Assembly (NCBI GenBank): GCA_016789605.1
Contig: JAEUQO010000289.1
Span: forward strand, 8,861 to 72,860
Source of the DNA: Acidobacteriota bacterium
GTDB lineage: Bacteria; Acidobacteriota; Blastocatellia; RBC074
Length of the DNA stretch: 64,000 nt
Direction: 5' to 3'
The notes under the pieces were generated by a model, which was given only the letters and a program-made list of their open reading frames with translations, did not search any database and had not been told where the DNA came from. Shown here piece after piece: positions 34,556 to 53,479 of this stretch. The position numbers and the translations under genes are program-made. How positions within the stretch are numbered: position 1 is the stretch's first letter; each line of letters begins with the position of its first letter.

Positions 34556-35383
34556 TTACTTTGGATAGCGAAACCAGATTTCAGCGACAGCTTCTTGCGC
34601 GCTCAACAGAAAACCATTCGGAAAAGGCGGCAAGCCCGTTGCGGCAGCAGCCAGAATGGCGCGCTCTGCTGCGTTGTTGACCAGCTCGTTCGTGCTGCGT
34701 CGTTTGAAATAGTTTGTGGCCACGCGGCCATTCACGACGGACAAGATGCGCCCATCGCGCGCAATGCGCAGTTGCACGATCACGTATTGCGGGCTGGTCA
34801 CATCAGCCGTCACCGGCGGATTGTAATTGCGGCTCAGAATCATCTGGATTCGCCGTCCGTATTCTGATCCGCCGGGGACGCCGCTTGCCCCCAGGTTTGC
34901 GCCGGAACCCACGCCCACGCCGCTGGTGTATTGCGCTGGCGCAGGCGAACCGAAACTGCGTCCTACCTCGACATTGGTGTTAGTCGAACTGCCGCGCAAC
35001 GGCTCTTTCGCATAGGCTTGGGCCGTTTGATTGGCGGTCGGACGATCCGTTGCTTTTAGCTCTTCCTTGGTTTTCGGCGTTGCCTTGGTGCTGGGCAGAA
35101 CTTCTGCCTCCGGCGTTGTTTTCGGCGCTTCGGTCTCTACCAGTTCATTGTTGGCGGTGTTCTTTTCTTCACCGAGAAACGATACCGAACGCGGTTGCGT
35201 GAATCCCAATTGACTGGCCGAAATCGTGCCGACTTCGATGACGCCCTCGCCACTGCCTTGGCCTTCGCCTGCGGCGACGATGGTGGTTGTCAGCGGATTG
35301 CGAAAGAGCCAGACATACACCAGCAGCAACACAGCGTGCATCACGATTGACAGGATGGTTCCGGTGCGCTGATCGAGTTTCAC
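34556..35383 (-). CDS. tolA: TolA/TonB-like energy transducer
   Basis: N-terminal TM with S..MH motif (SIVMHAV), low-complexity linker and TonB/TolA-C-like domain (YGRRIQ..L..NY.PP...V.LRIARDG.I). It follows tolR. Confidence 0.7.
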   Translation of the reverse strand: MKLDQRTGTILSIVMHAVLLLVYVWLFRNPLTTTIVAAGEGQGSGEGVIEVGTISASQLGFTQPRSVSFLGEEKNTANNELVETEAPKTTPEAEVLPSTKATPKTKEELKATDRPTANQTAQAYAKEPLRGSSTNTNVEVGRSFGSPAPAQYTSGVGVGSGANLGASGVPGGSEYGRRIQMILSRNYNPPVTADVTSPQYVIVQLRIARDGRILSVVNGRVATNYFKRRSTNELVNNAAERAILAAAATGLPPFPNGFLLSAQEAVAEIWFRYPK

Positions 35384-35386
35384 GGT

Positions 35387-35815
35387 TTACTTCTTGGTCG
35401 GTTCGGTTACGAGACTGACATTGGCCTGTGCCCGTTTTGCCTGATCCAACACATAGGCGATCACGCGATAGGGCGTATCGCCGTCTCCGCGCAGATACAC
35501 GCGGCGGTCTTTGGCATTGGCCAGACGCTCTGTCAGCAGTTGCGGCAGATCATTGATATTGACCGCCTGCCGTTCGTTCTTGCCGCTCAAATAGACGGAG
35601 CCTTCTTTGTCCACGGAGAGGATCAACGCCTCAGGCGTGGCTTCGTTGCTTTGGGCTTCGCGGGTTTTGGGCAGATTGACCTGAATGCCGGTTTGCAGAA
35701 TCGGCGCTGTAACCATGAAGATCACCAATAAGACCAGCATCACGTCTACCAGCGGCGTGACGTTGATTTCCGCCAGCGCGGTTTGGGTTCTTCCACTTCG
35801 ATTGGTAAAAGCCAT
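35387..35815 (-). CDS. tolR: TolR/ExbD
   Basis: EINVTPLVDVMLVLLVIFMVTAP and VYLRGD motifs. Confidence 0.92.
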   Translation of the reverse strand: MAFTNRSGRTQTALAEINVTPLVDVMLVLLVIFMVTAPILQTGIQVNLPKTREAQSNEATPEALILSVDKEGSVYLSGKNERQAVNINDLPQLLTERLANAKDRRVYLRGDGDTPYRVIAYVLDQAKRAQANVSLVTEPTKK

Positions 35816-35827
35816 AGCTCAGAAATC

Positions 35828-35917
35828 AAAAGTCAAAAGGCAAGAAGTAAAAGGCGAAACCTGGAGCCGAAATGCGTACAGACCGATTTATTTTTGCCTT
35901 TTGTTTTCGCCTTTTAC
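35828..35917. repeat. Heptamer (AAAAGGC-like) short tandem repeats with complementary arm
   Basis: AAAAGTC AAAAGGC AAGAAGT AAAAGGC at 35828-35855. Complements TTGCCTTTTG and TTTCGCCTTTTAC at 35894-35917. Confidence 0.6.
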
Positions 35918-36633
35918 TGCCCCGATTCGCGTTCGATGAAATTCAGCAGTCGCAGCGTGAAGCTGTCCATTTCTGCTGCCAGCAATTTGATGCGGTTCAG
36001 ATAGTGGTTATAGGCGAGCACCGCCGGGACCGCCGCCGCGATGCCAGCCGCCGTGGCAATCAAGGCTTCTGCAATGCCTGGCGCAACGGCTTGAATGGAA
36101 GCCGTGCTTGCCTGGCTCAAACCTTGAAACGCGATAATGATACCGACCACAGTGCCAAACAAGCCGATGAAGGGGGCCGCGCTCGCTGTTGACGCCAACC
36201 AGCCCAGGCTTTGTTCCAGTTTGGTCGTTTCGCGGATGGCGACGCTTTGCATGACGCGTTGCACGGCGTCCAGATTGAGCTGGCGTTGTTTTTGCAGCTC
36301 GTCATTGGCGGCTTGAAAGATCGCGACCAGCGGACTGTCTTTGAAATTTACGCTGCCCGTATGCAGTTCTGCCCAGCGCGTTGCCTGGTCAAAGAGTTGC
36401 AGGAATTGCGCTGATTTCTGTTGGGCCAGTTTGGTGGCGCGCTCTTTGGTGAAGATGATCGCCCACGAGGCAATCGAAAAGAGCAACAGAATGAGCAGCA
36501 CAAATTTGGCGATGGGGCTGGCACGCAGAATTAAATCCAACAAGCTGCTGTGTTGGGCAGTTTGTTCCTGCCACAACCAGAAAGCGGGCCAAAAAACGGG
36601 CGAGCAAGCAGACGAAGCTTCGACTACGATCAA
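35914..36633 (-). CDS. tolQ: TolQ/ExbB (MotA family)
   Basis: LASTASAAPFIGLFGTVVGI and VAPGIAEALIATAAG motifs. Start uncertain. Confidence 0.92.
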   Translation of the reverse strand: MIVVEASSACSPVFWPAFWLWQEQTAQHSSLLDLILRASPIAKFVLLILLLFSIASWAIIFTKERATKLAQQKSAQFLQLFDQATRWAELHTGSVNFKDSPLVAIFQAANDELQKQRQLNLDAVQRVMQSVAIRETTKLEQSLGWLASTASAAPFIGLFGTVVGIIIAFQGLSQASTASIQAVAPGIAEALIATAAGIAAAVPAVLAYNHYLNRIKLLAAEMDSFTLRLLNFIERESGQ

Positions 36634-36933: not shown

Positions 36934-37428
36934 ATGAACCGTGCCACGAAAGTTATCTTGACTCTCGTTGTGGTTGGAGGTTTTGCCCTTGGTACAACGT
37001 ACACCCAAACCAGCAACGCCACCAGCTTATCTGTAGACTCCATCAACCAACAACACACACAAGCGCATTCAGGGCCTGTCTTGCGGGAATATCGCGGCAT
37101 CAAACTTCAGATGAAACGCGATGAAGTGCAGGCCGCGCTTGGCAAGCCGGAAAACTCAAGCGACGCCAGCGATGATTTCAAATTGAACGGAGATGACACC
37201 ATGACCGTTCATTACGACAACGGCGTCGTCAAAGCGATTCAGCTTGCGTTTCTCGATGCCAAGAATGCGCCCGCCTGGAAAGACGTGGTGGGAGATGCCG
37301 AAGTGGAGGACATGGCCAACGGGGCCAAAGCCGCCCGCAAAACCGTCGCGGCGGAAAAATTCTGGGTTTCGATTTACCAGAACAAAGACGCTTCGATCAC
37401 ACGCATCACGATCAGTCGGATGAACTAG
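36934..37428 (+). CDS. Hypothetical exported protein (SmpA/BamE-like motif)
   Basis: AAGGAG RBS, N-terminal hydrophobic segment and LQMKRDEVQAALGKP. Confidence 0.65.
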   Translation: MNRATKVILTLVVVGGFALGTTYTQTSNATSLSVDSINQQHTQAHSGPVLREYRGIKLQMKRDEVQAALGKPENSSDASDDFKLNGDDTMTVHYDNGVVKAIQLAFLDAKNAPAWKDVVGDAEVEDMANGAKAARKTVAAEKFWVSIYQNKDASITRITISRMN

Positions 37429-39750: not shown

Positions 39751-40803
39751 TTAACGGTAGTGAATAGGGAATGTGACCAGATAAGGTTGGCCGGGGTTCG
39801 GTCTCACCTTGAATATGGTCAGTGGTAGGGGATCGTGTTGCGTGAGCGAATGGTTATCTTCCATCGCTTTCCTCTCCTCCTCTGTCCACAGCTTTCCAAT
39901 TTGAGCTTGATCTTCCAAGCGGGAGGCAGTGGTTTTCCATTTCTTTTCCCATTCTTGAAAGAGCTCTTTTTTGATAGTTGTGATTTGATCTGTCAACGGA
40001 ATTTCTTGTAGTTTTGTGGGAGATACAATGATCGTCAACATTTCTCCCCGCAGGTTAGGGCCTGCATTGAGAACGGAAAAATACGGGATCGCGTCTTGGG
40101 GGCTTGGGATATTTACAATTTGACCAGCGGAAATGCGATTGTCTCCGCCGCGCGTGGTGGTTAGCGGAAAAATCAAATATGGCTCGCTGAGTGAACCGTC
40201 TGCGTTTATTTCGCGATCAATGATGTACAGGTAGGCATCATCCACACTTGGAATTTCGAAGGAGAGCCGGGCAAGGTCTTTTTGACTCAGAGCTTTGTCT
40301 ATAGAGGCGCGTTCTGCGATCAGCTTGCCTTTTTGACTGATGATGCGTTGCTCGACGGGGGCTACTGGCTCGCGGAAAAGCCACAAGGTCACTCCCAATA
40401 AATGCGTGTCGGTATTAGACCATTCGGAGTTGGCGCCAGCAGAGAAAGACGTCTCTGGTTCTGAATTGGGGGGCTTGTTTGTTGGGGAAGCGCTTGAGGC
40501 CGATTCCGAGGTGTCTTTGAGCGGCAAGCGAGCTGAAGATTTTGGATTAGATGGTGCCTCAGAAGCGATAGCTGTTTGCGCCGCACTCACCGGAGGCGGA
40601 GAGGGCTTGCCTGCGGTAGGGAGAGCTTCTGTCTTGGGTTGGGATCGTGCAGTTCGCGTTTGTTTTTTCTGGCGAGCTAATTGGAATATCTGGTTGTACG
40701 CCGGGCGTGAATCCGGAACGGGTTGGGGAACCTGGGGCTGCGCTTGAACAGAAACAAGCGCCAGCCCAATGAGGCTCAGTAACAATATCGGGTGATAGGT
40801 CAT
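39751..40803 (-). CDS. Secreted protein with Pro/Ser-rich linker and DUF4384-like domain
   Basis: Signal peptide, low-complexity linker, then GVTLW...RLSFE...YLYIIDRE...PYLIFP...GDN.I.AG. Confidence 0.7.
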   Translation of the reverse strand: MTYHPILLLSLIGLALVSVQAQPQVPQPVPDSRPAYNQIFQLARQKKQTRTARSQPKTEALPTAGKPSPPPVSAAQTAIASEAPSNPKSSARLPLKDTSESASSASPTNKPPNSEPETSFSAGANSEWSNTDTHLLGVTLWLFREPVAPVEQRIISQKGKLIAERASIDKALSQKDLARLSFEIPSVDDAYLYIIDREINADGSLSEPYLIFPLTTTRGGDNRISAGQIVNIPSPQDAIPYFSVLNAGPNLRGEMLTIIVSPTKLQEIPLTDQITTIKKELFQEWEKKWKTTASRLEDQAQIGKLWTEEERKAMEDNHSLTQHDPLPLTIFKVRPNPGQPYLVTFPIHYR

Positions 40804-40855
40804 TATGAATCGCCGTGTATTGTGATGACACATGAAAACACCTCTCTAATTGTTA

Positions 40856-43800
40856 TTACCATTCGCCCTGTAATGTGAAGCCCGCCCAATAATATGGGTC
40901 TTGGCGTCGCGGGTCTTTTGCCAGGGCCAATTGGGCTAAGCGAAATGCCGCCGCCGGTTTCAGGCCTTCTTTGAACATTTGTTCGTAAAACTTTTCCATA
41001 AGTTCTGCTGTTGCACTATCGCTAACACTCCAAAGACTGACGAGCACTCGTTTGGCTCCTGCGTACATCATTCCGCGCGTCAACCCGACAATGCCTTCTC
41101 CCCGAACTTCCTTGCCCAGAGCTGTTTCGCAGGCACTCAAGACCACCAACTCAGCAGGGAATTTTAGGCTGAATAACTCCGTGGAAAGCAGGAAGCCGTC
41201 CTGCGCTTGCCCTTGCGGGGTGACCAGAGACAACACCAGACCTGAGAGCTCAGGGCGAAAGGCATTGAGGAATCCGTGCGTTGCGAAATGGACGATACGG
41301 TATTCGCCGAGTTGCGGGTTGGTGGCAATCGCGCGGCTGGCGTCAAAATCCAGCCATTGACGAGATGGTGGCGACGCAAGCTTGAAGATTCGCTCAGCTT
41401 CCTGTCTAGTGAAGGGGAGGCGCGCCAGCGATGGCGCGCCAAAGCTATTGGCTGCTTGTGCCAACACGCGGCTACGATTGCTTGGCTGCGGCGATGGATT
41501 GTTACCGGAAGCGGCTCTGGCTGATGTCTTGATCCGTGAGTCGCGCGGATCAAACACTGCGTCTGCGATGAGGGCTATGTTGCGGGGCGCAGGCACACGT
41601 TTAGCAAGTTCTCTGCGTAATGAGACCAGCGTAGTCGCAGACGGCAAGGTGATTATTTCGTGCCCGGCAATTAACGGTGTAATTGCGCGGGATGGTGATT
41701 TCCCGTCTCTTAATTCCGGCAACGCTGCGAACGGCAGGTAATGCAACGCGCCGTCGGGCACGATTAGCAGCCGCTTGCCTGCTAGATGCGCTGCCGCAGG
41801 AGCTAACAGTAACTTGCTGAGCAAAAGGCCATGTTGTAACAATTCGTCTTGCCGATGTTGCAACATCTCTGATGAAATCGGTTGCGGCTGTGAGGCTTGT
41901 CCAAATACCTGTCCAGGTCTTGTTTTTGTCGGATCACTTGCCAGAAGGCCGTGAAAATTCCTGGCTAATTGTTCGATTTCTGTGCGTGCCGGTAAGGGGT
42001 AAGAGAAAATATTGTTGTGGGTGAGAACCCACAGATAACTTCGCTCTGCTCCGAGTGCGTATTCAAGCAGCACTGTATCGGCGTCCAGCGCTTCTTGCTG
42101 TATCTCATGCACCGAGACAGGCTGTGGCTGAGTTAGTGCAGCATAGCGCGGACTGGTCCGGCGAATTTCCGTGCGTAATCTTTGCTGTTGAGTCACAAGC
42201 TCATCCAGCTCTTGTCTTAAACGCAACGCTTGTTGGTCATCGCTTCGATCAAGCGCCAACAATTGCCGTCCCAACGTAGCATTGATCCGCGATTGCAGGC
42301 GGCGCTCTTCGACCAGCAGGTCGGGGGAGGCGTTGCCTCGCAGGTCGGCGCGCGCTTCTTGCAACATTTCAAGTAGTACGCGTGCGCGTGCGCGTTCGCT
42401 GGCTTGCAACCCCGCTCCCTGATTTTCGCGCCGCTTTCCTGCCGCCATCAGTAAATCAACATAAAATTCATAATACTCCTGTACCGAAGCAAGGTAAGAC
42501 GCACGGAGCTCTTGCATTTCCAGTTTTTGGCGATTGGATTCAATGAGCGCCAGCGACTGTTCAATATGTTTACGCGCATCTGCCGAATTTCCCGCCTGAT
42601 GTTCGATGCGGGCCAAGGCGTGTAGTGCAAGCGCCTGACTGTTGCGGTCGCCAGCGGCTTGGGCTAATGGTAATGCTTTTTCCAGCGTGTTTAACGCCGA
42701 TTGCATTTCTCCCGTCGCCAAACGTATCAAGCCTAGATTGAGTAAGGTTGCCGCAGTTTCGCGCCGTCGCCCGCTTTTTTTACGTAATGCGAGTGCTTGT
42801 TCCAAATACGTCAGCGCGCGCTGGTGATTTCCTAATTCACTTTCGGTGACGCCAAGATTGTTTAAGGCGAGTGCTTCCCCGGCTGTGTCTGACTGTCCAC
42901 GCCACTTTTCCCGCGCTAGTTTGAAATCTTGTAAAGCTTCTTCCTTGTTTCCGCGTGCCAATTCGAGCGCGCCAAGGTTATTCAAGGTGTACGCTTCGCC
43001 GCGTACATCTTGGGCCCACTGCCTGAGCGGCAGCGCTTTTTCCAGATGACGAAATGCCTCGTCTTTATCGCCCAGCGCCGAGTAAATAAAACCTATGGAA
43101 GTCAAAAACGCCGCTTTTTGACAGGCGCGATCCTTGGGGTCCTGTAAATATTCAGACAGGGCTAACCCTTCTGTGAAATGATCCAGGGCTTTTTCTGGTT
43201 CGCCTGTTGCGCTCAGCGCTACACCAAGGTTATTCAAAATTCTGATTTCGGCGGCCAGTGTCAAGCGAGGGTTGCTTTGAGTCTTGGCAGCAGTGCGGGT
43301 GCGCCGTAACGCCTCTGACAGCCAGGTCACCGCCTGGATGCTTTCACCTTGCTCATGCAAGATCGTTCCGAGGTTGTAGCGAGTATCAATGGATTCGAGT
43401 GGGAATTCGAGCTGGTCCCAATACTTCAAAGATTGCTCGTAATACGTTTGCGCTTTTGCTTTTTCATTCAGCAACGAATGGGTCAGGGCCAACAGTTTCA
43501 AGGTTTGCGCCAGTCCCTGTAGGCTGCGGGTATCTCGTACCTTTTTCCATTCCTCCAAGGCCTGGGTAAAGAGAGGAATCGCTTTTTCCTGGTTTTTGCC
43601 GCCAATGGCCAGATGTACTTGCCCCCAACGCATTAGGATGTCAGCGCGTAGGGCAGGTGACTTGAGCGGTGGCAGGCTTCCCAGCGCCTGACGATGCGCA
43701 TTTAGGGCAAGGTCGTATTCCTTGAGAATCACATGCAAACGCCCGATTTCATTGTAGGTTCGTGCGGTTACTTCCGGCTCGTCAGTTTGCTGCCAGAATG

Positions 43801-44053
43801 CAATCGTGTCAGTCAATGCACTGATAGTTGCGCGGCAGTTTTCTTCTGGAGCATTGGGGGGAAGTTGGGCTGCGCGATCCAGCGTTTGTTCTGCTTGCTG
43901 CCGTTTGGTGGCATTGCTTTGCTGATGCCTGCTCGTGACTGACGCTGGTTTGCCTGCGAAAAGCAGGCAAACCAATAAGCATCCGCTCAAGTACCGCCCG
44001 GCGCTGGCAAGCAGTTTTCGCCTCCATTGTCTCCGTCGTTTGTCTGTGCTCAT
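40856..44053 (-). CDS. TPR-repeat CHAT-domain (caspase-like CD clan) protease
   Basis: Multiple LNNLG-type TPRs and a coiled coil. CHAT motifs LLIVPDGALH.LPF, HFATHG (His), VLSACET (Cys) and SLWSV.D, ending PYYWAGF...G.W. Confidence 0.92.
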   Translation of the reverse strand: MSTDKRRRQWRRKLLASAGRYLSGCLLVCLLFAGKPASVTSRHQQSNATKRQQAEQTLDRAAQLPPNAPEENCRATISALTDTIAFWQQTDEPEVTARTYNEIGRLHVILKEYDLALNAHRQALGSLPPLKSPALRADILMRWGQVHLAIGGKNQEKAIPLFTQALEEWKKVRDTRSLQGLAQTLKLLALTHSLLNEKAKAQTYYEQSLKYWDQLEFPLESIDTRYNLGTILHEQGESIQAVTWLSEALRRTRTAAKTQSNPRLTLAAEIRILNNLGVALSATGEPEKALDHFTEGLALSEYLQDPKDRACQKAAFLTSIGFIYSALGDKDEAFRHLEKALPLRQWAQDVRGEAYTLNNLGALELARGNKEEALQDFKLAREKWRGQSDTAGEALALNNLGVTESELGNHQRALTYLEQALALRKKSGRRRETAATLLNLGLIRLATGEMQSALNTLEKALPLAQAAGDRNSQALALHALARIEHQAGNSADARKHIEQSLALIESNRQKLEMQELRASYLASVQEYYEFYVDLLMAAGKRRENQGAGLQASERARARVLLEMLQEARADLRGNASPDLLVEERRLQSRINATLGRQLLALDRSDDQQALRLRQELDELVTQQQRLRTEIRRTSPRYAALTQPQPVSVHEIQQEALDADTVLLEYALGAERSYLWVLTHNNIFSYPLPARTEIEQLARNFHGLLASDPTKTRPGQVFGQASQPQPISSEMLQHRQDELLQHGLLLSKLLLAPAAAHLAGKRLLIVPDGALHYLPFAALPELRDGKSPSRAITPLIAGHEIITLPSATTLVSLRRELAKRVPAPRNIALIADAVFDPRDSRIKTSARAASGNNPSPQPSNRSRVLAQAANSFGAPSLARLPFTRQEAERIFKLASPPSRQWLDFDASRAIATNPQLGEYRIVHFATHGFLNAFRPELSGLVLSLVTPQGQAQDGFLLSTELFSLKFPAELVVLSACETALGKEVRGEGIVGLTRGMMYAGAKRVLVSLWSVSDSATAELMEKFYEQMFKEGLKPAAAFRLAQLALAKDPRRQDPYYWAGFTLQGEW

Positions 44054-44122
44054 CGTGCGGATTTACCTCTCGGTGGCAGCTTCTGGTTACAAAGCTGCCA
44101 CCGACTGAATAAAGAACGTATA

Positions 44123-47100
44123 TCAGAATTCGAACCGGCCTCCGATTTGGATCCGGCGAGGTCGGTTCAGTTGATCGTTTAGTACGCCGAAGAGGTCTGG
44201 CCGAAAGGTATTGGCTTTATCCAGTACCGGGTCGGCAAAATTGACGTGGTTAAAAACGTTGAAGAAATCGAAGGTCAGCGAAAACCGAACGCGGCTGGTC
44301 AGTCGCGTTTCTTTGCCAAGACTCCAATCGAAATTCCACTGACCCAGTCCGCGCAACGCGCCTCTGCCGTGGCGGCGGTCACGCGAGACAAGGATTTCTC
44401 GGAAGTTACTTTCTACCGCAGCCGGATCAGCAAAAAGGTTTAAACCGGTTCCGCCCTGTCTGGGATCGCCTGCACTTCCGACACCGTTGGCTCCGCCAGT
44501 GACGCCCTTGTGTACTTTGGGGTCATACAATGAATTTTGTGTGGGACGTGCCCAGGTGTACCCCCATTTGCCGCCGCCAAACGAGCCTGTTCCCGACGCA
44601 GAAGCCAGTAATACACCTAGTGGGCGGCCACTTCTGGCAGTGAAAATTCCTCCCGCAAACCAGCCACTAATGATTGTGTTGAGAGCGCGAGATTGGGCTT
44701 TCAACCTGTCGGTTTTTCCGAATGGCAATTCATAAACACCGTGAGCGTTAAGCGAATGCCGAGCGTCAAAGCCACTGGGGGCATAATCAATATCAGGGAA
44801 AAATGGAGATTGAAGTTGAAGCAGGGTATTCTGATTCCCAGCTCCGGTTACCCCAGTTAAGAATACCCCATCAGGCATATTGTCGAGAGATTTTGAAAGT
44901 GCGTAGTTGAACTCAAACGATAGGCCATTGGAGGCTCGTTTTCGCAGGCTGATAAAGAACGCATGATAATTTGAGAATCCTGCTGAGTGCCGATACAAAT
45001 AACTATTCAGCGGGTCTGGCAGCGAGTAGTTTGTGAGGGGGGGGGCTGGTTTGCCACCACACACAAATGGACCGCCCCCGGTGTCCAAAACTTGGGAAAA
45101 CAGATTGCCAATAATTCCATTTCTAAAGTACCTACCATACCGCTGTGCAAAGCAAGTTGTCATTCCAGTTCCGTAATAGTTCTCGAAATACGGTTGGGGC
45201 GAAACTGCTCGCCCGGCTCTTAGCGCTGTGGCAACTGCGTCAAAAGCCTCTGCCACAGTTTGCCCGGATTTCATGTCTTTGTGCATAAAAGGGAAGGCCG
45301 CCAAGTCCCCATCTACGTATAGTTGCCGGGCTATTCGTCCGACGTAGCCTGTCTCAACCATCCAGTTCGCAAATAATGCACGTTGCAACGAGAACGTTAC
45401 GTTATGGTTGCGCGGCACTTTGACAAATGGGTCAATGCGAAAGACCAATGCTCCCGATTCATTTTCAGGTTGACCAATGCTGTTGGGGAGGGTTGGTAAA
45501 GGGGTTTTCCCGTCAATCCCGATCCTGAATGGTTGAGCCGAAGCGTTTAATGGCTCGGACACAAAAGTTCCACGCACAAAGCCATTATCCAAAAAAGGCG
45601 CCCCCAGCACGGTCAGGTTGTTGGTGCGGTCAAAGACGAGGGAGTAACCCCCCCGTATCACAGTTTTTTGATTGCCCAGCAATCGGCCCAGAAGACCTTT
45701 GCTAAACGATGGGTTCCAGGCTACAGACAGCCGCGGGGAAAGATTGGAATAGTCAGTGTTGAAGGCGTTTTTTCTGCCCAGTTGGGACAGTGATGCATAT
45801 TCGATTTCCGGCGTGAAAGTGCTGCCGTTCTCAGCGGCTCTGCGACGTTGATCTAGGTATTCCTTAAACCCGACGATTTGGCGGGTGTCCTTATACAGGG
45901 CCAATGACTCCCGTCCTGTATTTTCCACTGGAGACGATTGCCAGCCATAGGACGCGCCATACGTTATGGTCAAAGAAGGTTTCAGCTTCCAAGTATCTGA
46001 AAAGAAAAAGCTCCATTCGTTATAACGGTGGCTGGTAAAGGTTTCGGCCCCAGCAGGCTGGCGTTGCAGATCGCCATCATAGAAGGCTGCGACTCGCACT
46101 GTATCCAGAATTCCGAAAAGCGTATTGGCAAGGCGGGCCGTTGGTGTTGATCCCGAGAAGCCTCTAATTTCTGCATATGGTAGAGAGCCGGAAAACCCTG
46201 TCCTGCCGATCTGCTCGGCACGTAGACGACGTATATTCAACCCTGTTTGAATGTTGTGAGGGCCTTTTGCCCAAGTGAGCGTGTCAGTCAATTGATAGGT
46301 GTCATTTTTGATTCTGCTGGCGTAGTCAGGATCAACCAAATTGTCCAGGTTGTAGAAACTTTGCAGCCGGATCGGGATATCTAAACCCACAAAGGGTTTT
46401 TGCGGGATTACATCGTAATTTTGCCGATCTTGTAACCAACTGAACCGGCTTTCGTTAGTTAGGTGTTCAGAAAATACGCTGACCAATGAACCCGCCACGT
46501 TGCGAGGCCGTTCGGCAGAGCGGTTCCCACTTGTTTGTGTCTGTAAATCCGCTTGGCAGTTGTTGCTGGTTGCTTGTGTGAAAATCTGGCAACCTTGCAA
46601 GCGGCGATCTGCCGCGACTTTAGCAGAGAGATTCCAGCGCTCAGAAAACTTATGATCTAAACGGGCAATGCTGATGTTATTGGAAAGTCGTGTTGGCGCA
46701 GCGAAGGTAAAGCCCGCCGTGTTGAGCCGATCGCCTCGCGAAAAGTCATTGGGCAGAGGATACAGGCTTAGATACTCAAGCATTTTAGGATTTGGCCCCA
46801 AACCACGTGGGTCTGTTTGTTTGAGATCAATGGTGGTGATGACGCCATTGGCGGTCGTACGCAAAATGCCGCGGCGGTATTCCGCCGTTGGTACGATTCT
46901 GGAGATTGTGGCTGAGTCTGGGTTGCGGCGGCCCTCGTAATTCAGAAAGAAGAATGTGCGGTCTTTGTACAAGGGCCCGCCCAGTGAAAGACCGAAGCGA
47001 TTGTCGAGCAGGTAAGGGCGTGAGATACCGGTACGATTATTTGTCCAGGAGTTTGCTGCCAGAGCGTCATTTTGGTGATAGAGGTACGCGCTGCCGTGCA

Positions 47101-47821
47101 GTTTTTTACCGCCGCTTTTGGTGATTAAGACGATTTGACCGCCAGAAGCAGGCAAGAACGTGGCGTTTGCATTGGCGATTGCCACACGCATTTCTTTCAA
47201 TGATTCAATGGTCACTGGGGCGATTGTTCGGGTGGGCGAACCGGTTTGTTTGTCCGACACGTCTATGCCATCCAAGGTGATGGTGACCTGGTCTTGCCGC
47301 GAACCAGCAAATTCACCGGCTTCTGAGGTCGCTGGCTGAAGGAAAAATAGAGCACTGGGCTGACGTTCCTGTGTAGGCAATTTCTTCAGCGTTTCTTCGC
47401 GAAAAACGCTGCCGATGCTGGCGTCGGACGTTGCCAACTGAGACTCAATACCGGCTGAAATCTGGATTGTGGCGGGAACCAGTTCTCCTAACTCCAGCCT
47501 GACATGAATGGTTGTTTCTTTTGATAATTCAGTGTGGGCTTCGACTTCAACTGGTTTGAACCCAGACACCCTTACCCCCACGCGATGTATATCTGGTGGA
47601 AGAGCAAAAAAAGAATATCGTCCAGCTTCGTCAGTTTTGGTTTTAAGTTCCTGTCCGGTAGCAACTCGAGTTAATACCACGGTCGCGTCCTGAATCGGGG
47701 CTCCTTTTGTGTCGGTAATGGTACCACGCAGAATTGAGGTGGCGGTTGTTTGCCCACTCGCGATTGTCACACTGCAAATGAGTAAGGCCAAGACATACCA
47801 ATACATACACTGACTCTTCAT
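44123..47821 (-). CDS. TonB-dependent receptor (Oar-like, carboxypeptidase-regulatory-like N-domain)
   Basis: 1232 aa with a signal peptide, LRGTITDTKGAPI, GSRQDQ..ITLDGIDV and TKSGG..LHGS. C-terminus RRIQIGGRFEF. Confidence 0.9.
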   Translation of the reverse strand: MKSQCMYWYVLALLICSVTIASGQTTATSILRGTITDTKGAPIQDATVVLTRVATGQELKTKTDEAGRYSFFALPPDIHRVGVRVSGFKPVEVEAHTELSKETTIHVRLELGELVPATIQISAGIESQLATSDASIGSVFREETLKKLPTQERQPSALFFLQPATSEAGEFAGSRQDQVTITLDGIDVSDKQTGSPTRTIAPVTIESLKEMRVAIANANATFLPASGGQIVLITKSGGKKLHGSAYLYHQNDALAANSWTNNRTGISRPYLLDNRFGLSLGGPLYKDRTFFFLNYEGRRNPDSATISRIVPTAEYRRGILRTTANGVITTIDLKQTDPRGLGPNPKMLEYLSLYPLPNDFSRGDRLNTAGFTFAAPTRLSNNISIARLDHKFSERWNLSAKVAADRRLQGCQIFTQATSNNCQADLQTQTSGNRSAERPRNVAGSLVSVFSEHLTNESRFSWLQDRQNYDVIPQKPFVGLDIPIRLQSFYNLDNLVDPDYASRIKNDTYQLTDTLTWAKGPHNIQTGLNIRRLRAEQIGRTGFSGSLPYAEIRGFSGSTPTARLANTLFGILDTVRVAAFYDGDLQRQPAGAETFTSHRYNEWSFFFSDTWKLKPSLTITYGASYGWQSSPVENTGRESLALYKDTRQIVGFKEYLDQRRRAAENGSTFTPEIEYASLSQLGRKNAFNTDYSNLSPRLSVAWNPSFSKGLLGRLLGNQKTVIRGGYSLVFDRTNNLTVLGAPFLDNGFVRGTFVSEPLNASAQPFRIGIDGKTPLPTLPNSIGQPENESGALVFRIDPFVKVPRNHNVTFSLQRALFANWMVETGYVGRIARQLYVDGDLAAFPFMHKDMKSGQTVAEAFDAVATALRAGRAVSPQPYFENYYGTGMTTCFAQRYGRYFRNGIIGNLFSQVLDTGGGPFVCGGKPAPPLTNYSLPDPLNSYLYRHSAGFSNYHAFFISLRKRASNGLSFEFNYALSKSLDNMPDGVFLTGVTGAGNQNTLLQLQSPFFPDIDYAPSGFDARHSLNAHGVYELPFGKTDRLKAQSRALNTIISGWFAGGIFTARSGRPLGVLLASASGTGSFGGGKWGYTWARPTQNSLYDPKVHKGVTGGANGVGSAGDPRQGGTGLNLFADPAAVESNFREILVSRDRRHGRGALRGLGQWNFDWSLGKETRLTSRVRFSLTFDFFNVFNHVNFADPVLDKANTFRPDLFGVLNDQLNRPRRIQIGGRFEF

Positions 47822-47971
47822 CTCTGATCCCTCCAGACTTGGTTAGGTTGATGCAATGCCTGAAGCATTCGGGCTTCTTTCTTCGTTTACTATATGCGTG
47901 CGGAGCAGACAAAAAAGCTCACAATTTTTGTCTCGCTGAGATTATTTGTGTTTCGCGGAGGGCCGACGCCA

Positions 47972-49969
47972 TTAACGCCGGTGTTCGAGCCGAATGGAAT
48001 ACACCAAAATGTTATCACGACAGTATAGTCGGCTGTATGTGCCAGTGGGCAAGCGTTCGCTCGAAACATTATTTGCGGAGCGACCGAGTAAAAAGCGCTG
48101 AATTGACTGAGCTTGCTGCAGGTCAGATATCCAACCGGGGCGGGCAGGATTGAGTTTGCGACCTGCCCAGGCATAAGGCTTGGCTGCTTCGAGTTCAGGG
48201 ATGGGCTGCGTCGCCCACACCAACCAGAACTTTTCCGTCCCTTCAGCAGAGTCAAATTGGAAACCCCAATACTGAGGGTCATCAGTTTGAGGAATGGTGA
48301 GCCTCTGATGTGCTTGCAGAAAAGCTGATGGTTCATCATTGGTTACGGAAAATGGCGATTCCAGTAAAATGTGTGGCAGGGGGGCGGTTGAATCAGGCGC
48401 TTCGTTCAGAATGTACAAAAAACCATCCTGTGAACTAGTGACGTTAAAGCGGATCGAATCCCCCTGACCATAGATGAGCGTACCGTTTTCCGGAAGCAGA
48501 TCGAATGGTTTTTGTTTGGGAAAGAGTTTGGGATTGCTCCGCACAGACAAGGAATAGTCCAGGATTCTCTCATTTATTGTTTGCGGCGGTGGTTGCTGCG
48601 GAAGGGAGGTCTGGCGCAGCAGAAAAAACGCACCCAGTACGACTAATAAGCTGAGCGCAAGCCATAGCAATCTTGGGCGCCAGGGATTGATCGGTTTGAT
48701 TATTGACGGCGCAACTGGAGATTCAAGTTCAACAGAATGAGGTGCAGGGCGCTTTAACGTTGCCGAATCCGCTTGGTTCGTCATTGGAGCCGTGTCGGGC
48801 ACCGCCGGGGGCGGTGAGATAGAGCTTGCTGACAGTGGATGCGTCGCTTGATAGTGTGGGGCTGTGAGCGCGAGAAACAAGTCATTGCCCAAATCCAGGG
48901 CGCTGCTGTAACGATCGCGCAAATGAAATTGCAGCGCTTTGAGGATTGCCTGTTCTGCCTTTTCTGGTAGTTCGGCACGCAATTCGCGAGGTGATACTTT
49001 GACGCCGGCATATTGAGCTTCGAATAGTTCACGCGAATTCCCGGCAGGGAAAGGCTTTCGCCCTGTAACCATTTCGTAAGCCATGACTCCCATGGCGTAA
49101 ATGTCACTAGCAATTACCGGGGTTCCCTGCAATTGTTCAGGTGAGATATAAGCAAGAGAGCCAACAACACGGGTGTTCACACCTTCTGTTAAGGTTGATG
49201 AGTGAAGAATAGAAGCAATGCCGAAATCAATCAATTTCACGAATAGGCCTCCGCTTGATTGCTGCAACATGACATTTTCGGGTTTCAAGTCGCGGTGGAT
49301 AACCTTTCGGTTATGCGCGGCAGATAAAGCGCGGCCAATTTCGAGCATGATCTGGCCAATTCGATGCAGCTCGACTTTTCCCTCTTGTAGCAAAGTCCGA
49401 AGCGGCAGGCCTTCGATGAACTGCATTACGAAATAGCTTCTTTCATCGGGCAGAATCCCCCAATCCAAAATCTGCACAATACCAGGGTGGTCAATGCGCG
49501 TGAGAGCTTCAATCTCTCCTTGGAATTTTTTGGTGTACCAGGCGCGGTCTTTTTGCCCGACTGCTAGGTTTAGCAGTTTGACCGCAACAGGCCTCCCCTT
49601 CAGCCTTAGATCAAGCGCCTTATAGACGATGCCAAATCCGCCTCTCCCCAACTCGTCCTCAATTTGATAGCGGTCTTGAAGTAGGTCACCAGGCTGAAGC
49701 GTTTTGAGGGGAGAGGGCAATTCCTCTGTTTCCAGGCGATCAGCACCGCCAAATAAATTGGCGTAGATCAGTTTTGATTCTGGCAATGATATTGGTCGCT
49801 CAATAAATTCCACAGCTTGATCTGCTGCTAGCAGCAAATTTGAGACGACCTTGATAAGCTCCTGATCTGAAGCGCATTTTTCCTCTAAGAATGTCAGTCG
49901 CTTAGTGGCAGGTAACGCCAAGGCTTCTTCAAATAGTATTCTTGCTATTTGCCATCGTTCTGGCGTCAT
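47972..49969 (-). CDS. Membrane Hanks-type Ser/Thr kinase with C-terminal DUF4384-like domain
   Basis: GRGGFG, VAVK, HRDLKPEN, DFG and SPEQ are all intact. One TM (LLWLALSLLVVLGAFFLL). C-domain GDSIRFNVTSSQDGFLYILNE. Confidence 0.93.
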   Translation of the reverse strand: MTPERWQIARILFEEALALPATKRLTFLEEKCASDQELIKVVSNLLLAADQAVEFIERPISLPESKLIYANLFGGADRLETEELPSPLKTLQPGDLLQDRYQIEDELGRGGFGIVYKALDLRLKGRPVAVKLLNLAVGQKDRAWYTKKFQGEIEALTRIDHPGIVQILDWGILPDERSYFVMQFIEGLPLRTLLQEGKVELHRIGQIMLEIGRALSAAHNRKVIHRDLKPENVMLQQSSGGLFVKLIDFGIASILHSSTLTEGVNTRVVGSLAYISPEQLQGTPVIASDIYAMGVMAYEMVTGRKPFPAGNSRELFEAQYAGVKVSPRELRAELPEKAEQAILKALQFHLRDRYSSALDLGNDLFLALTAPHYQATHPLSASSISPPPAVPDTAPMTNQADSATLKRPAPHSVELESPVAPSIIKPINPWRPRLLWLALSLLVVLGAFFLLRQTSLPQQPPPQTINERILDYSLSVRSNPKLFPKQKPFDLLPENGTLIYGQGDSIRFNVTSSQDGFLYILNEAPDSTAPLPHILLESPFSVTNDEPSAFLQAHQRLTIPQTDDPQYWGFQFDSAEGTEKFWLVWATQPIPELEAAKPYAWAGRKLNPARPGWISDLQQAQSIQRFLLGRSANNVSSERLPTGTYSRLYCRDNILVYSIRLEHRR

Positions 49970-50152
49970 GGAGAGATGTTTTCGGCTGCAGAAAGTTTGG
50001 TTGAGAACTCAAAATACGCGGCTCAGCATCTCTAAGCCTTGTGTTTCTTTCAGGCGCGTAATCGTACAGGGAAAATACGTCAAGGACAAGTAATTGAAGA
50101 ATTTGTGTGATCCAGTTTATTTCAGAACTGGTTTGATATTTAGCTGTCAATC

Positions 50153-51937
50153 TCAATAGCGCACGACAAAATCTGCCATGCGTTGACAAGGCTTTAACTC
50201 GACTTCGAGTTTTGCCGTGGCGGCTTGTTTGCGCAACTTGGCGCGTACTGTTGCGTCCCAGGCTAGCGGACGAGGCGCAGCATCTGCCGGTTCAGTTTCG
50301 GGAATGGGGCGGGTTGCCAGCCAGTATTTGCCCGGCGCGAGGTGTTGGAAGGAAAAGGTTCCGTTCGACGCGACCAGCGTTTCTGCATAACGAAAGAGGT
50401 TGTCTGCCGCAGCCGGTTCGGCGGGAAGCAAATGGATTCGGATCCGTCCTGTTCGTTTCTGGCCTTCTTGGGTTACAACCTGGCCTTGCAAAGTGGCAGC
50501 ACCTGTCAGCAGCGCGACCGTCAGGCCAGACACTTTTTGTCCTGCATTGACGGTGAGTACTCCCGGCGGAGAATCTGGCGGTTTGCCCGCAACTGCAGCC
50601 ATTTTGATTTCGTGCACATGCCACTGTTCTCCAGGCAGATTGATGGCCAGACGGTATCGTCCTGCGGCCAGCCCTTTGAGTATGAATTCGCCTTTGTCGT
50701 TGGGCGTGCTGCCCAGGTTGCTGACGAAGTCGAATCTCCAGGGCGCAGTTGGCGCAATCATCTGTGTCGGGCTGAAGCGTTCTGCTTTGAACAAAATCTC
50801 TTCCAGTAAAGCGGTTGTCTTGGCCGGACAGCTTGTTGTCGCTGCCGTCTCTGGTGGTGTTGTGAGCGTGACTCGTCCGCTGAGGGAACCGTGCCTGGCA
50901 AGTTTCAATTCCACGCCGCTGACGTCTGCGCCACGCACCACGACACGTTTTGCCAGAGATTCGGCGCTATCGTCTTTTCGATCATCGCGCAGCGCGACAA
51001 GCTCGTACTCGCCATCCGGGATGCCGAAGAGCGCAAATCCTTTTTCGTTTGAGACGTATTCGGTACGCTCAAGCTGCTGTGTGTTTGCATTGAACAACGA
51101 GACCAGAGTGATGCCAAAGTGGCTGGTGGAATCTGTGTCTCCCGCAAGCCAGCCGCTTATTGTGTGCTGACCTTGTTCTCCGCGCGGGCGGATATCAATG
51201 CCGGTGATCTCTTCGCTGCCACGAATGGTCAGTTCGGCTGCCGTTTCCCGCGTTGCTGACGGGTAGTAAGTCGGCGTGTAAGTGCCGGTCTCGCGCACTT
51301 CGCCGTAAAAGCCAGAGCTGTAGCTGACCGAAACCACATACACGCCTGGCTCAAGACCGAAAAGCCTGTATACGCCACGATCATCTGTCATGCGACTGCC
51401 GCCAAAATTTCCTCTGAGTTCCGGCGGCAGGGAATTTATCAGCGACTGTCCTTCGGGATTGCGAACCAGCTTGGCTGTGACATAGGCGCCCACAACCGGA
51501 TCGCCTGCGGCATCTGTGACGCGTCCCGTGATCACGCCGCCGCGCGAAAGACGAAGTGTGACGTAATCTCCGGGACGGCGAATTTCCAGACTGGATTGTG
51601 ACGATACGGTTACGTATGCGGGCATAAATCCCGACACGAGATACGGGCCGGGGGCCAGATCGGTGAGCTGAAAATTGCCCTCGTCGTCACTGGTGACGGT
51701 GCGCGCATTGCCCGGATTGCCCGCGCCTACGGCGAAAACTCGCAAGTTGCTGACAGGCTGCCCGTCATCGGTGATTACTCTGCCTGAAATCGTGTTGTTA
51801 CGTTTGTTGTCAGGTGTTGGTGCGGTGGCTGGCGCCGGAGCCTGGGCCGCAAGCAACGTCGTGAACGACAAGAGCCACCCGATTGCGAAGCCGAACTGTG
51901 ATCTGTCACTCAACGCATTTCGCCATTGACGGTTCAT
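50153..51937 (-). CDS. Secreted protein with tandem carboxypeptidase-regulatory-like (transthyretin-like) domains
   Basis: Signal peptide and repeated I.GRV / GGVITGRV / TDDRG.YR..GL.PG.Y modules. Confidence 0.82.
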   Translation of the reverse strand: MNRQWRNALSDRSQFGFAIGWLLSFTTLLAAQAPAPATAPTPDNKRNNTISGRVITDDGQPVSNLRVFAVGAGNPGNARTVTSDDEGNFQLTDLAPGPYLVSGFMPAYVTVSSQSSLEIRRPGDYVTLRLSRGGVITGRVTDAAGDPVVGAYVTAKLVRNPEGQSLINSLPPELRGNFGGSRMTDDRGVYRLFGLEPGVYVVSVSYSSGFYGEVRETGTYTPTYYPSATRETAAELTIRGSEEITGIDIRPRGEQGQHTISGWLAGDTDSTSHFGITLVSLFNANTQQLERTEYVSNEKGFALFGIPDGEYELVALRDDRKDDSAESLAKRVVVRGADVSGVELKLARHGSLSGRVTLTTPPETAATTSCPAKTTALLEEILFKAERFSPTQMIAPTAPWRFDFVSNLGSTPNDKGEFILKGLAAGRYRLAINLPGEQWHVHEIKMAAVAGKPPDSPPGVLTVNAGQKVSGLTVALLTGAATLQGQVVTQEGQKRTGRIRIHLLPAEPAAADNLFRYAETLVASNGTFSFQHLAPGKYWLATRPIPETEPADAAPRPLAWDATVRAKLRKQAATAKLEVELKPCQRMADFVVRY

Positions 51938-53479
51938 TGCTTTTCCTCCTCGGTGGCACTGAGGTCGAGTGTCAGAGCAAGGGATTTTTCTTCGCCATTG
52001 GTCACCGTAATCAATTGCTTCACTGCACGAGGCAGCTTGGCCGGAGGCGCAGCCGTGAAATCTGCGGGACGGACACCAGCGGCGAGTTCATATTCTCCCG
52101 GTGGCAAACCAGAGAGCAGAAATTGGCCCTTGTCATTTATTGCGGCGTAACGGTCGCCAAAACCTTGTCGGCTTTCTACGCGGTGTGCTTGTGCATACAG
52201 CACCAGATGCGGTGACAAAACCCCGTTGATGATTTTTACCACGCCGCGAATCGCACCAGTTCCTTGTCCGAGAATGAGCCGGACGCCCGTGACATTTTCG
52301 CCCGCGCGAATTTCGATGCCATCACGGACTTCGACTCCTTGATGTTCAATACGCTGCAAAAGAAAAGAGGCGCTGCTGGTATAAGGAAAGATCGAGAGGC
52401 TGATTTTGCCCGGACCCAGGCCCGTAATCTGAAAGCTTCCATCTGCGTTAATGGCAGCAGGTGGCGGGGAAAAGCTTCCGTATTGTTGTGTGAGTTGTGA
52501 CGAGGAAATCCTGTTTTGCGCCAGTTTGCGTTTGGTTTCTGCGTCGAGCGAGCCTTCGACGACGACGCTGCCGCTGAGCGTGCTGCCGCGTCTGGCTTTG
52601 AGTTCCAGCCCGTTGAGATTGCTTTCGTCAATTTCAAAGGTGACAGGCTCGGCATAAAAGCCCTCTTGTGCCGCGAAAGAAGTAGAAGACATCACCTCCA
52701 GCCGATATTTCCCAGAAGACAATTCAGGAATACGGAAAATCCCACGCGAGTCGCTGGTGACAGCTCGTCCGCCGCCGAACGTGTTTGGTGATTTTTCATT
52801 GGGCGCAGTCAGACAACTGACGGCAATCTGAGGCAATGGCTGACCCGAGCTGGCATCAATGACGCGACCTATGGCTTCATAGGTCTTTCTAGCTGGGCCC
52901 AGGCGGATGTTGATCTCCGTTAGCTCTTCTCCTTCTTTGATTTCAAGAATGCGGGCGCGGCTGAGTTCGGTCGCGTCCGGGTGATAGGTCAAGGGATATT
53001 TTTTGCTCGTTGATTCAGTGAAACCGTCCCCGCCAGCACTTAGCACATACCGTCCGGGCGGCAACCCATAAAAGCGATACACACCACGGTCGTCGGTTTC
53101 AGTTCTGTTGCGATTGCTCGGGCCGACCGATTCTGGCTGCCCATTTTGGCGGCCTAATTTGGTATTGGCCTGCCGGAATCTGTGCCAGCGTATACCGACC
53201 TTCGGCATCAGTGCGGACTTGGTAGGTCGGTTTTCGTTTGGGAACGGCGGGCGTTCCTTTGAGCGATTCTGCTGCTCGGGCGGCGCGTTCCTGGCTGGTT
53301 TCCAATTCGCTGATGGTGACAATCGCGTTGGGCATCGCGGCCCCGTTCACCAAAACCCGTCCGCTGAGCGAGGCTGTTCGGGGGGGCGTATCCTGTCCGG
53401 TGGTTTGGGCTTGTGCTTGTGTCGGCGAGAGCAACCACCAGAGGGCAGAAAGCAAACAGAGTATTCGCCGCTGTGGCAT
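51934..53479 (-). pseudogene. Frameshifted paralog of the carboxypeptidase-regulatory-like repeat protein
   Basis: Strong GAGGAGGT RBS and signal peptide at 53479 (ORF 53099-53479). Homology continues in another frame (ORF 51934-53322) from about 53155. The GGVITGRV segment seen in the neighbouring paralog is missing. Confidence 0.75.

Follow-up and report, generated by a model that had tools for sequence, protein, structure and literature searches.

A 64,000-nucleotide stretch of Acidobacteriota DNA (contig JAEUQO010000289.1, positions 8,861 to 72,860; hereafter the window) carries four consecutive genes for a membrane Ser/Thr kinase, a putative outer-membrane transporter, a protease of the CHAT family (HetF-associated with tetratricopeptide repeats, TPR) and a small secreted protein that resembles DUF4384. 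We propose, with a probability of roughly 0.45, that this module is one lineage's version of a widespread acidobacterial envelope-signalling cassette with a protease-gated receptor kinase. The conserved core of the cassette is a single-pass kinase bearing a DUF4384 domain, an exported caspase-fold protease on a repeat scaffold, and a small secreted DUF4384-like protein, whose gene stands immediately after that of the protease.

Conservation of the core

Among the species representatives of the Genome Taxonomy Database (GTDB), 458 loci hold a relative of the small protein. The best 80 by phmmer were annotated, and all of them appear to be acidobacterial, judged by record title or gene content. 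Counting as a neighbour any gene within 700 bp of the DUF4384-like gene, we found a TPR-CHAT gene at 40 of the 80 loci, a gene for a secreted WD40 protein of about 1300 residues (WD40-caspase) at 11, a kinase with a DUF4384 ectodomain at 10, and both the kinase and the WD40-caspase at 4; none of these was seen at 10 loci, and the flank was too short to judge at 5. A partner adjoins the DUF4384-like gene in 65 of the 75 informative loci, and it lies 0.8–8 kb away in 5 of the 10 loci that have no adjacent one. A control of 448 kb, taken from the same loci at least 1.5 kb downstream, held no CHAT gene, no DUF4384 kinase, one WD40-caspase and four transporter-like genes. The clustering of kinase, CHAT and DUF4384-like genes is far beyond chance. 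The preliminary description of this DNA had proposed a four-gene unit, which was to fall if the genes never co-occurred elsewhere. Neighbourhood searches do find them together, and the proposal stands, with a kinase/CHAT/DUF4384-like core that is widespread and a transporter that belongs to one subclade only.

The WD40 proteins are secreted, are about 1230–1340 residues long and have a C-terminal caspase dyad (YAGHG ... IDACNSG). They occur instead of TPR-CHAT in 15 loci (examples in Table 1). Several loci have two tandem CHAT genes upstream of one DUF4384-like gene, and a family of 196-residue proteins recurs between tandem TPR-CHAT genes (L049, L016, L032, L042, L071 and L088), with matches among the loci of E = 1e-55 to 1e-107. 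Some metagenome-assembled genomes (MAGs) titled Heliobacteriaceae, Heliomicrobium or Clostridia (L019, L020, L023, L029, L045, L046, L062, L067, L070 and L082) carry typical acidobacterial cassettes, and their labels look wrong. One such record, CAYXVZ010000024.1 (L010 and L082), encodes the DUF4384-like protein P0126 and has an ECF43-like sigma gene.

The common form of the cassette, seen in at least 13 loci, has the order PF07638 sigma factor of the ECF43-like type (ECF, extracytoplasmic function), kinase, small open reading frame (ORF) 'x', TPR-CHAT and DUF4384-like gene, without a transporter. The sigma2.2 motif reads [QE][PT][TS]x, mostly QPTA or QTTA, in all 15 alignable sigma factors, in place of the DAED of ordinary ECF sigma factors. 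Replacement of this acidic motif (consensus QTTA) is the hallmark of ECF43, whose members EcfP and EcfK become active once the partner kinase has phosphorylated the threonine found there. Locus L092, the closest relative of the window module with upstream sequence, has the sigma gene directly upstream of the kinase gene. In most relatives of the module the kinase gene comes after an ECF43-like sigma gene, a usual output that the preliminary description did not foresee. The regions ahead of the sigma genes were compared by a crude k-mer search for a common ECF-type promoter, which yielded nothing usable. ORF 'x' encodes 118–230 residues, is fast-evolving and beta-rich, ends in W-[ST]-A-[QE], and has no Pfam match and no obvious signal peptide. 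It occupies the slot held by the transporter in the window, and may be a fifth component of the module.

The core proteins

The kinase domain was found by Pfam at residues 101–354 (Pkinase, PF00069, E = 3.7e-47). All of the marks of a Hanks-type Ser/Thr kinase (G-loop, VAIK lysine, HRD, DFG) are present and intact, as GRGGFG (108–113), the lysine of VAVK (K131), HRDLKPEN (225–232) and DFG (248–250). One transmembrane (TM) helix, at residues 434–451, is predicted to leave the kinase domain in the cytoplasm and the C-terminus outside. Judged by profile comparison with the alignment of the small protein's homologues (family alignment A1, n = 21), which gave an hhalign E-value of 4e-5 at a probability of 70%, the kinase's DUF4384 domain and the small secreted protein are distant paralogues.

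The first 60 or so residues of the kinase (MTPERWQIARILFEEALALPATKRLTFLEEKCASDQELIKVVSNLLLAADQ) carry a motif that is also present in every sigma-linked kinase examined (L011, L036, L073, L079 and others), with the consensus MTPERYQxIxELF..ALEL..ER.AFL..AC..D..LR.EVE.LL. The motif is absent from a subgroup of kinases without a sigma gene (L013 and others), and it could be a sigma-docking element. PknS has been reported with an N-terminal extension of 83 residues.

The protease has a CHAT domain (PF12770, E = 1.7e-63) and matches TPR families (TPR_12, E = 1.9e-50). Its catalytic dyad is intact, with His926 in FATHG and Cys975 in LSACET, and both motifs are kept in 53 of 64 related CHAT proteins; with a His/Cys dyad preceded by TPR repeats, the protein qualifies on sequence as a clan CD protease of the CHAT family. 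The N-terminus is a signal peptide or anchor, and signal-like N-termini are found in nearly all CHAT proteins of such modules. The TPR-CHAT protein is thus predicted to be an exported, periplasmic caspase-like protease. A lipoprotein reading of its N-terminus (LSGC) was rejected, because the orthologues have ordinary signal peptides of the AQQ/AQE type and no conserved lipobox. A phmmer search of the Protein Data Bank (PDB) with this protein returned TPR proteins only, and neither DdvA nor Csx29.

The small protein has a signal peptide, a helix at residues 43–64 in which F50 and R54 are nearly invariant, a linker at residues 65–140 that is disordered, variable and rich in Pro, Ser and Ala, and a C-terminal part formed by a beta-sandwich with a conserved C-terminal extension (alignment A1; AlphaFold2 pLDDT 77). 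Its own DUF4384 match, at 23.6 bits, is below the Pfam cut-off of 27. PF14326 is carried by 10 of its 21 homologues, and the copy in L102 scores 53 bits. Comparison of the model with the PDB gave no significant fold match and no functional lead, because only generic Ig-like sandwiches came up (best E = 0.046). The family of this secreted partner is large, with at least 565 clusters at 50% identity (565 at E ≤ 1e-30 in a profile search of 1.84 billion representatives).

These results bear out the preliminary description of the core products. It had read the kinase as an intact membrane protein with an outward DUF4384-like domain, on which Pfam, motifs and TM helix agree, and the protease as a TPR-CHAT protein with an intact His/Cys dyad and a signal-like N-terminus, on which Pfam, motifs and orthologues agree. 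It had also read the small protein as secreted and DUF4384-like; the signal peptide is present, and the tie to the family runs through the relatives that bear PF14326 and through the hhalign match.

The DUF4384-like domain is also found fused to kinase (STK), TPR, WD40, CHAT, adenylate/guanylate cyclase and TIR domains; examples with TIR, cyclase or a TM-linked cytoplasmic CHAT are P0356, P0360, P0348 and P0395. Such a spread of partners is what a portable extracytoplasmic sensor typically shows, and it hints at conflict systems. One apparent fusion of Plug with a DUF4384-like domain, P0409, was set aside as probably a chimeric gene call, its second half having its own signal peptide and the family helix. 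Even so, P0409 may indicate a classical transporter gene that adjoins a DUF4384-like gene.

The transporter and its subclade

The 1232-residue protein starts with a signal peptide and a CarboxypepD_reg domain (PF13620, residues 31–110, E = 1.7e-16), and a plug-like region precedes its barrel (OMP_b-brl_4, residues 233–1225, E = 6.6e-133). The Pfam search found no Plug (PF07715), TonB_dep_Rec (PF00593) or STN domain in it; Plug, and STN in the N-terminal region, were absent even at E ≤ 10. There was no NCBIfam match, and the family profile matched no solved TonB-dependent transporter in the PDB, only the CarboxypepD_reg domain. An AlphaFold2 model of residues 111–1232, made with an alignment of 30 homologues (pLDDT 80.8), aligns over its full length with TonB-dependent transporters in Foldseek. 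The top matches are YddB (E = 7e-25) and FusA (E = 6.5e-22), with PfeA, FecA, Cir, OprC and FhuA further down, in the range of E = 1e-25 to 1e-18. The fold of a TonB-dependent transporter, a 22-strand barrel closed by an N-terminal plug, is thus supported at the level of predicted structure only, and the 'TonB receptor' of the preliminary description stands as a fold but not as a set of sequence domains. Ahead of the plug region there is a sequence, ATIQISA, that by eye is TonB-box-like; the family consensus is E-x-V-x-V-T-A-G.

The Oar subclass is marked by an N-terminal CarboxypepD_reg extension (PF13620/PF13715), a different domain from the STN of signal-transducing receptors (PMC6434023). 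By this domain definition, the transporter is of the Oar class. An analogy with FecA-type transducers, drawn in the preliminary description, fails in its defining feature because the transporter has CarboxypepD_reg instead of STN (PF07660). A second Oar-class CarboxypepD_reg/OMP_b-brl_4 transporter in the window (Table 1), unrelated to the module, illustrates how common such transporters are in this genome.

No transporter gene adjoins CHAT or kinase at any of the 80 GTDB loci. The transporter is limited to the subclade of the window and is not a general component of the module. Locus L093 has all four genes in the same order, with identities of 64% for the transporter, 52% for CHAT, 40% for the DUF4384-like protein and 37% for the kinase. 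L005 has the transporter, CHAT and DUF4384-like genes in the order of the window, and its contig ends upstream. One MAG has the genes on two contig ends, sigma factor, kinase and transporter on one (L092) and CHAT and DUF4384-like on the other (L008). Among the orthologues, identity is 61–64% for the transporter, 50–52% for CHAT, 35–43% for the DUF4384-like protein and 34–37% for the kinase.

A metagenome scan with the single transporter sequence found no loci, and one with the transporter alignment found 41. Gene content varies around related transporters. The order is permuted in L132 (transporter, TPR-CHAT, kinase-DUF4384); L098 has a zf-HC2 anti-sigma-like gene, the transporter and TPR-CHAT; L102 has the kinase, the DUF4384-like gene, a large LGFP/beta-lactamase/Ig protein and the transporter; and in L094 a 49%-identical transporter stands beside a CHAT of a different subfamily. 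The transporter–CHAT link survives changes of gene order, which argues for function over mere descent. The zf-HC2 gene of L098, directly before the transporter gene, encodes 444 residues with an N-terminal zinc finger and a weak DUF928 match, and an anti-sigma-type regulator appears to stand there in place of the kinase. Most transporter relatives at 47% identity or below lie in transporter arrays without CHAT. A conserved gene for about 241–252 residues with no Pfam match follows 46–51%-identical transporter relatives that have no CHAT (Table 1).

The locus and its flanks

The four ORFs lie head to tail on one strand with short gaps, as had been described, of 150 bp between kinase and transporter and 69 bp between transporter and CHAT. 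The third gap is 22 bp if the DUF4384-like gene starts at its first ATG and 52 bp if it starts at Met11, and gene callers used both starts. The locus of the same strain is also present in several metagenomes, and the names of homologues point to the class Blastocatellia within the Acidobacteriota. Membership of the upstream CarboxypepD_reg gene pair in the module is doubtful, because L092 lacks the pair upstream of its orthologous module. The downstream ExbB, ExbD and TonB genes could energise the transporter; they were rejected as module members, since their adjacency is not kept in L008. Between atpC and exbB, on the opposite strand, there is an ORF of 164 residues with no Pfam match, which gene callers also found in contigs of the same strain.

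Table 1. Positions of the module genes, their domains and other features. Coordinates without a locus handle are those of the window.
Feature	Position	Strand	Size or basis
Kinase gene	47972-49969	minus	665 aa
Kinase N-terminal extension	49790-49969	minus	~60 aa; no Pfam match
Kinase periplasmic DUF4384 domain, aa 500-589	48203-48472	minus	Pfam, 31.1 bits (cut-off 27)
Transporter gene	44123-47821	minus	1232 aa
TPR-CHAT gene	40856-44053	minus	1065 aa
CHAT catalytic domain, aa 745-1063	40865-41821	minus	Pfam
CHAT dyad codon His926	41276-41278	minus	motif position
CHAT dyad codon Cys975	41129-41131	minus	motif position
DUF4384-like gene	39751-40833	minus	360 aa from first ATG; 350 aa from Met11
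Two overlapping CarboxypepD_reg-repeat genes	50153-53322	minus	594 + 462 aa; upstream context; Pfam
ExbB	35914-36633	minus	context, set 3.1 kb downstream beyond atpD/atpC; Pfam
ExbD	35387-35815	minus	context; Pfam
TonB	34556-35383	minus	context; Pfam
ORF between atpC and exbB	36934-37428	plus	164 aa
Second Oar-class transporter	3758-6973	plus	1071 aa
ORF 'x' (kinase/CHAT interval)	L073:5662-6261, L078:5921-6397, L079:5912-6379, L081:6053-6466, L077:5957-6367, L076:6173-6550		
WD40-caspase genes	L021:5938-9912, L052:5740-9768, L012:5804-9754, L064:10886-14590, L070:5457-9482		
Gene between tandem TPR-CHAT genes	L049:3283-3873		196 aa
zf-HC2 gene	L098:227-1561		444 aa
Gene after transporter relatives without CHAT	L095:13829-14557, L097:3754-4512, L117:2065-2790, L131:725-1450		~241-252 aa

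Proposed mechanism and alternatives

The predicted compartments place the kinase domain in the cytoplasm, the DUF4384 domain, CHAT and the DUF4384-like protein in the periplasm, and the barrel in the outer membrane. In the mechanism that we propose, a periplasmic or surface signal would be read by the TPR array, by the DUF4384 domains, or by both. The CHAT protease would act on, or be held in check by, the soluble DUF4384 paralogue or the ectodomain or linker of the kinase. The kinase would thereby be switched and would phosphorylate the sigma factor with the QxTA motif, changing transcription. In the subclade of the window, an Oar-class transporter would have joined the cassette between kinase and protease, where it probably carries a protein or peptide over the outer membrane, either a signal inward or the protease or the DUF4384 protein outward. 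In a narrower form of this proposal, which is possible but on the doubtful side, the module would be a periplasmic, CRISPR-independent counterpart of Craspase and DdvA, in which the protease gates kinase and sigma factor via DUF4384 and the transporter delivers the trigger protein or peptide.

Several observations weigh against a protease-gated receptor kinase. No sigma factor gene, and hence no ECF43 sigma/kinase pair, is present within the 64 kb of the window, so either a partner sigma gene lies elsewhere in the genome or the kinase acts on another substrate. Most modules have no transporter, which cannot therefore be essential to the core mechanism, and some close CHAT homologues lack these partners (L007). 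In P0395, a cytoplasmic CHAT is joined via a TM helix to an outside DUF4384-like domain, an architecture suggesting that DUF4384 is a sensor domain and not a CHAT substrate. The kinase ectodomain resembles the DUF4384-like protein of its own locus no more closely than those of other loci, and a permutation test for within-locus co-evolution was not significant (p about 0.10). Promoter and terminator scans of the locus gave no signal above chance (a weak terminator-like site lies at 50020-50038, minus strand, among sites no more frequent than chance would give), which leaves the short gaps as the sole hint of co-transcription.

The transporter invites other readings of the locus. In a secretion system of the Oar/PopC/PopD type, the transporter would export CHAT, the DUF4384-like protein or both, the latter would be an inhibitor or chaperone like PopD, and the kinase would only set the timing. 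Oar, whose subclass is defined by the CarboxypepD_reg extension, is needed for the secretion of PopC from the periplasm (PMC6434023). The CHAT protease of the window has an export signal, the gene of its small partner follows after 22 bp, much as popC is paired with the gene of its inhibitor PopD, conservation among the four proteins is highest for the transporter (61–64% identity), and an ExbB/ExbD/TonB set lies 3 kb away. We nevertheless consider this reading unlikely, since most CHAT/DUF4384 modules have no transporter nearby (adjacent to CHAT or kinase in 0 of 80 loci), the TPR-CHAT protein is, at 1065 residues, far larger than the 50.8-kDa PopC, and the top structural matches of the transporter are importers. 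Furthermore, it gives no role to the homologous DUF4384 ectodomain of the kinase or to the sigma factor. Those top matches hint at the opposite direction, in which the transporter would take in a protein or peptide that CHAT cleaves, as a nutrient or as a ligand sensed by the kinase. YddB and FusA, the latter a ferredoxin receptor, are TonB-dependent transporters that import proteins and are encoded together with periplasmic proteases (the FusA/FusC and YddB/PqqL types), and transporter and CHAT also adjoin where CHAT belongs to another subfamily (L094) or the gene order is permuted (L132, L098). However, the ranking may reflect barrel size only, as all of the transporters match at E < 1e-17. 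The CHAT proteases known so far are specific switches and not degradative enzymes, and the core module exists without a transporter. We regard an import-and-processing system of this kind as quite unlikely.

It is improbable that a ligand at the transporter is signalled as in FecA, by direct contact with the inner-membrane kinase. The kinase and transporter genes are adjacent, the pair is kept in L093 and L092, and the zf-HC2 anti-sigma-like gene precedes a related transporter gene in L098, but the STN domain is absent, there is no FecR-like partner, and the Oar study separates the two classes of receptor (PMC6434023). Least probable is inherited synteny, in which the genes would be neighbours by descent and would work independently. 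The strict four-gene order is confined to relatives with 50–64% identical proteins, and OMP_b-brl_4 transporters are very common in Acidobacteria, with four in the 448-kb control and the second copy in the window. Against this, the linkage of kinase, CHAT and DUF4384 spans hundreds of divergent loci and extends to fusion proteins, and that of transporter and CHAT persists when the gene order is permuted and with either of two CHAT subfamilies. For the core, synteny without coupling is already contradicted.

To our knowledge, mechanistic insight into bacterial CHAT proteases comes almost entirely from CRISPR-linked systems (Craspase, SAVED-CHAT) and a single myxobacterial anti-sigma factor, and activation of a sigma factor by phosphorylation is known from two proteobacterial pairs. 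The cassette physically links CHAT proteases and phospho-controlled sigma factors, in a phylum that is among the most abundant and least studied of the soil. It offers a tractable route to the activator of a periplasmic caspase-like protease, to the ligand of DUF4384 and to Oar-class protein transport for signalling. Since the DUF4384-like sensor is fused to TIR, cyclase and cytoplasmic CHAT, the family may be a general envelope sensor of threats (phage, predator or competitor) in these abundant soil bacteria.

Comparison with known systems

The nearest parallel for the kinase and sigma factor is found in the ECF43 pairs EcfP–PknT of Vibrio parahaemolyticus and EcfK–PknS of Xanthomonas citri. 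Like the cassette, they use a single-pass receptor kinase that has its sensor in the periplasm and an extension ahead of the kinase domain, and loci related to the window have a PF07638-type sigma gene directly upstream, with Q(P/T)TA replacing the acidic sigma2.2 motif. The sensor is TPR in those pairs and DUF4384 here, the loci here also encode a caspase-like protease and a secreted DUF4384 paralogue, and the window itself has no sigma gene. The ECF sigma factor literature that we searched describes no partnership of ECF43 with a caspase-like protease and a secreted DUF4384 protein, and the reclassification paper never mentions CHAT.

For the protease, the parallel is DdvA, which has a periplasmic TPR-CHAT module with a His/Cys dyad and controls the ECF sigma factor DdvS. 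It has been described as the only characterized anti-sigma factor with TPR-CHAT, and DdvA-like proteins were found only in Myxococcota and one Comamonas. In DdvA, a TM helix joins the TPR-CHAT part to a cytoplasmic zinc-binding anti-sigma domain, and autoproteolysis together with RseP has been proposed as the route of release. By contrast, the protease here is separate and exported, a kinase is the sigma factor regulator, and DUF4384 proteins are added. The CHAT protein of the window is not itself a DdvA-like anti-sigma factor, as the roughly 20 residues before its hydrophobic segment leave no room for an anti-sigma domain. In the type III-E CRISPR system, the TPR-CHAT protease Csx29 cleaves Csx30, which controls the ECF sigma factor RpoE. 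One group of Csx30 C-terminal domains is DUF4384, which makes the Csx29 precedent cited in the preliminary description an apt one. Craspase thus shares with the cassette a TPR-CHAT protease, an ECF sigma factor and, in that Csx30 group, DUF4384 at the C-terminus of the substrate. However, it is cytoplasmic and RNA-guided (Cas7-11), and Csx30 binds RpoE and Csx31, whereas the protease here is exported. No Cas7-11/gRAMP, CRISPR array or similarity to the N-terminal domain of Csx30 was found in the window or related loci. PADLOC gave only generic kinase and TPR matches, and NCBIfam likewise gave no match at the level of a system.

The Oar/PopC/PopD system of Myxococcus xanthus has, like the module in the window, a CarboxypepD_reg-extended transporter, a periplasmic protease and a small co-encoded partner. 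However, PopC is a subtilisin that lacks a signal peptide, and oar is encoded away from popCD. As for DUF4384 itself, its presence on caspase homologues (orthocaspases) and kinases has already been noted, and in the literature searched, Deinococcus reports aside, only fusions to proteases and kinases are mentioned. The partners here are the same as in the PF14326 fusions, but the DUF4384-like protein is free and secreted, is part of a conserved multi-gene cassette, and belongs to a small-protein family that adds a distinct N-terminal helix and C-terminal extension. The cassette is built from known kinds of parts, with no categorically new mechanism. If the protease does gate the kinase, this would be a protease-activated receptor kinase of bacteria, in which the known parts are wired in a new way.

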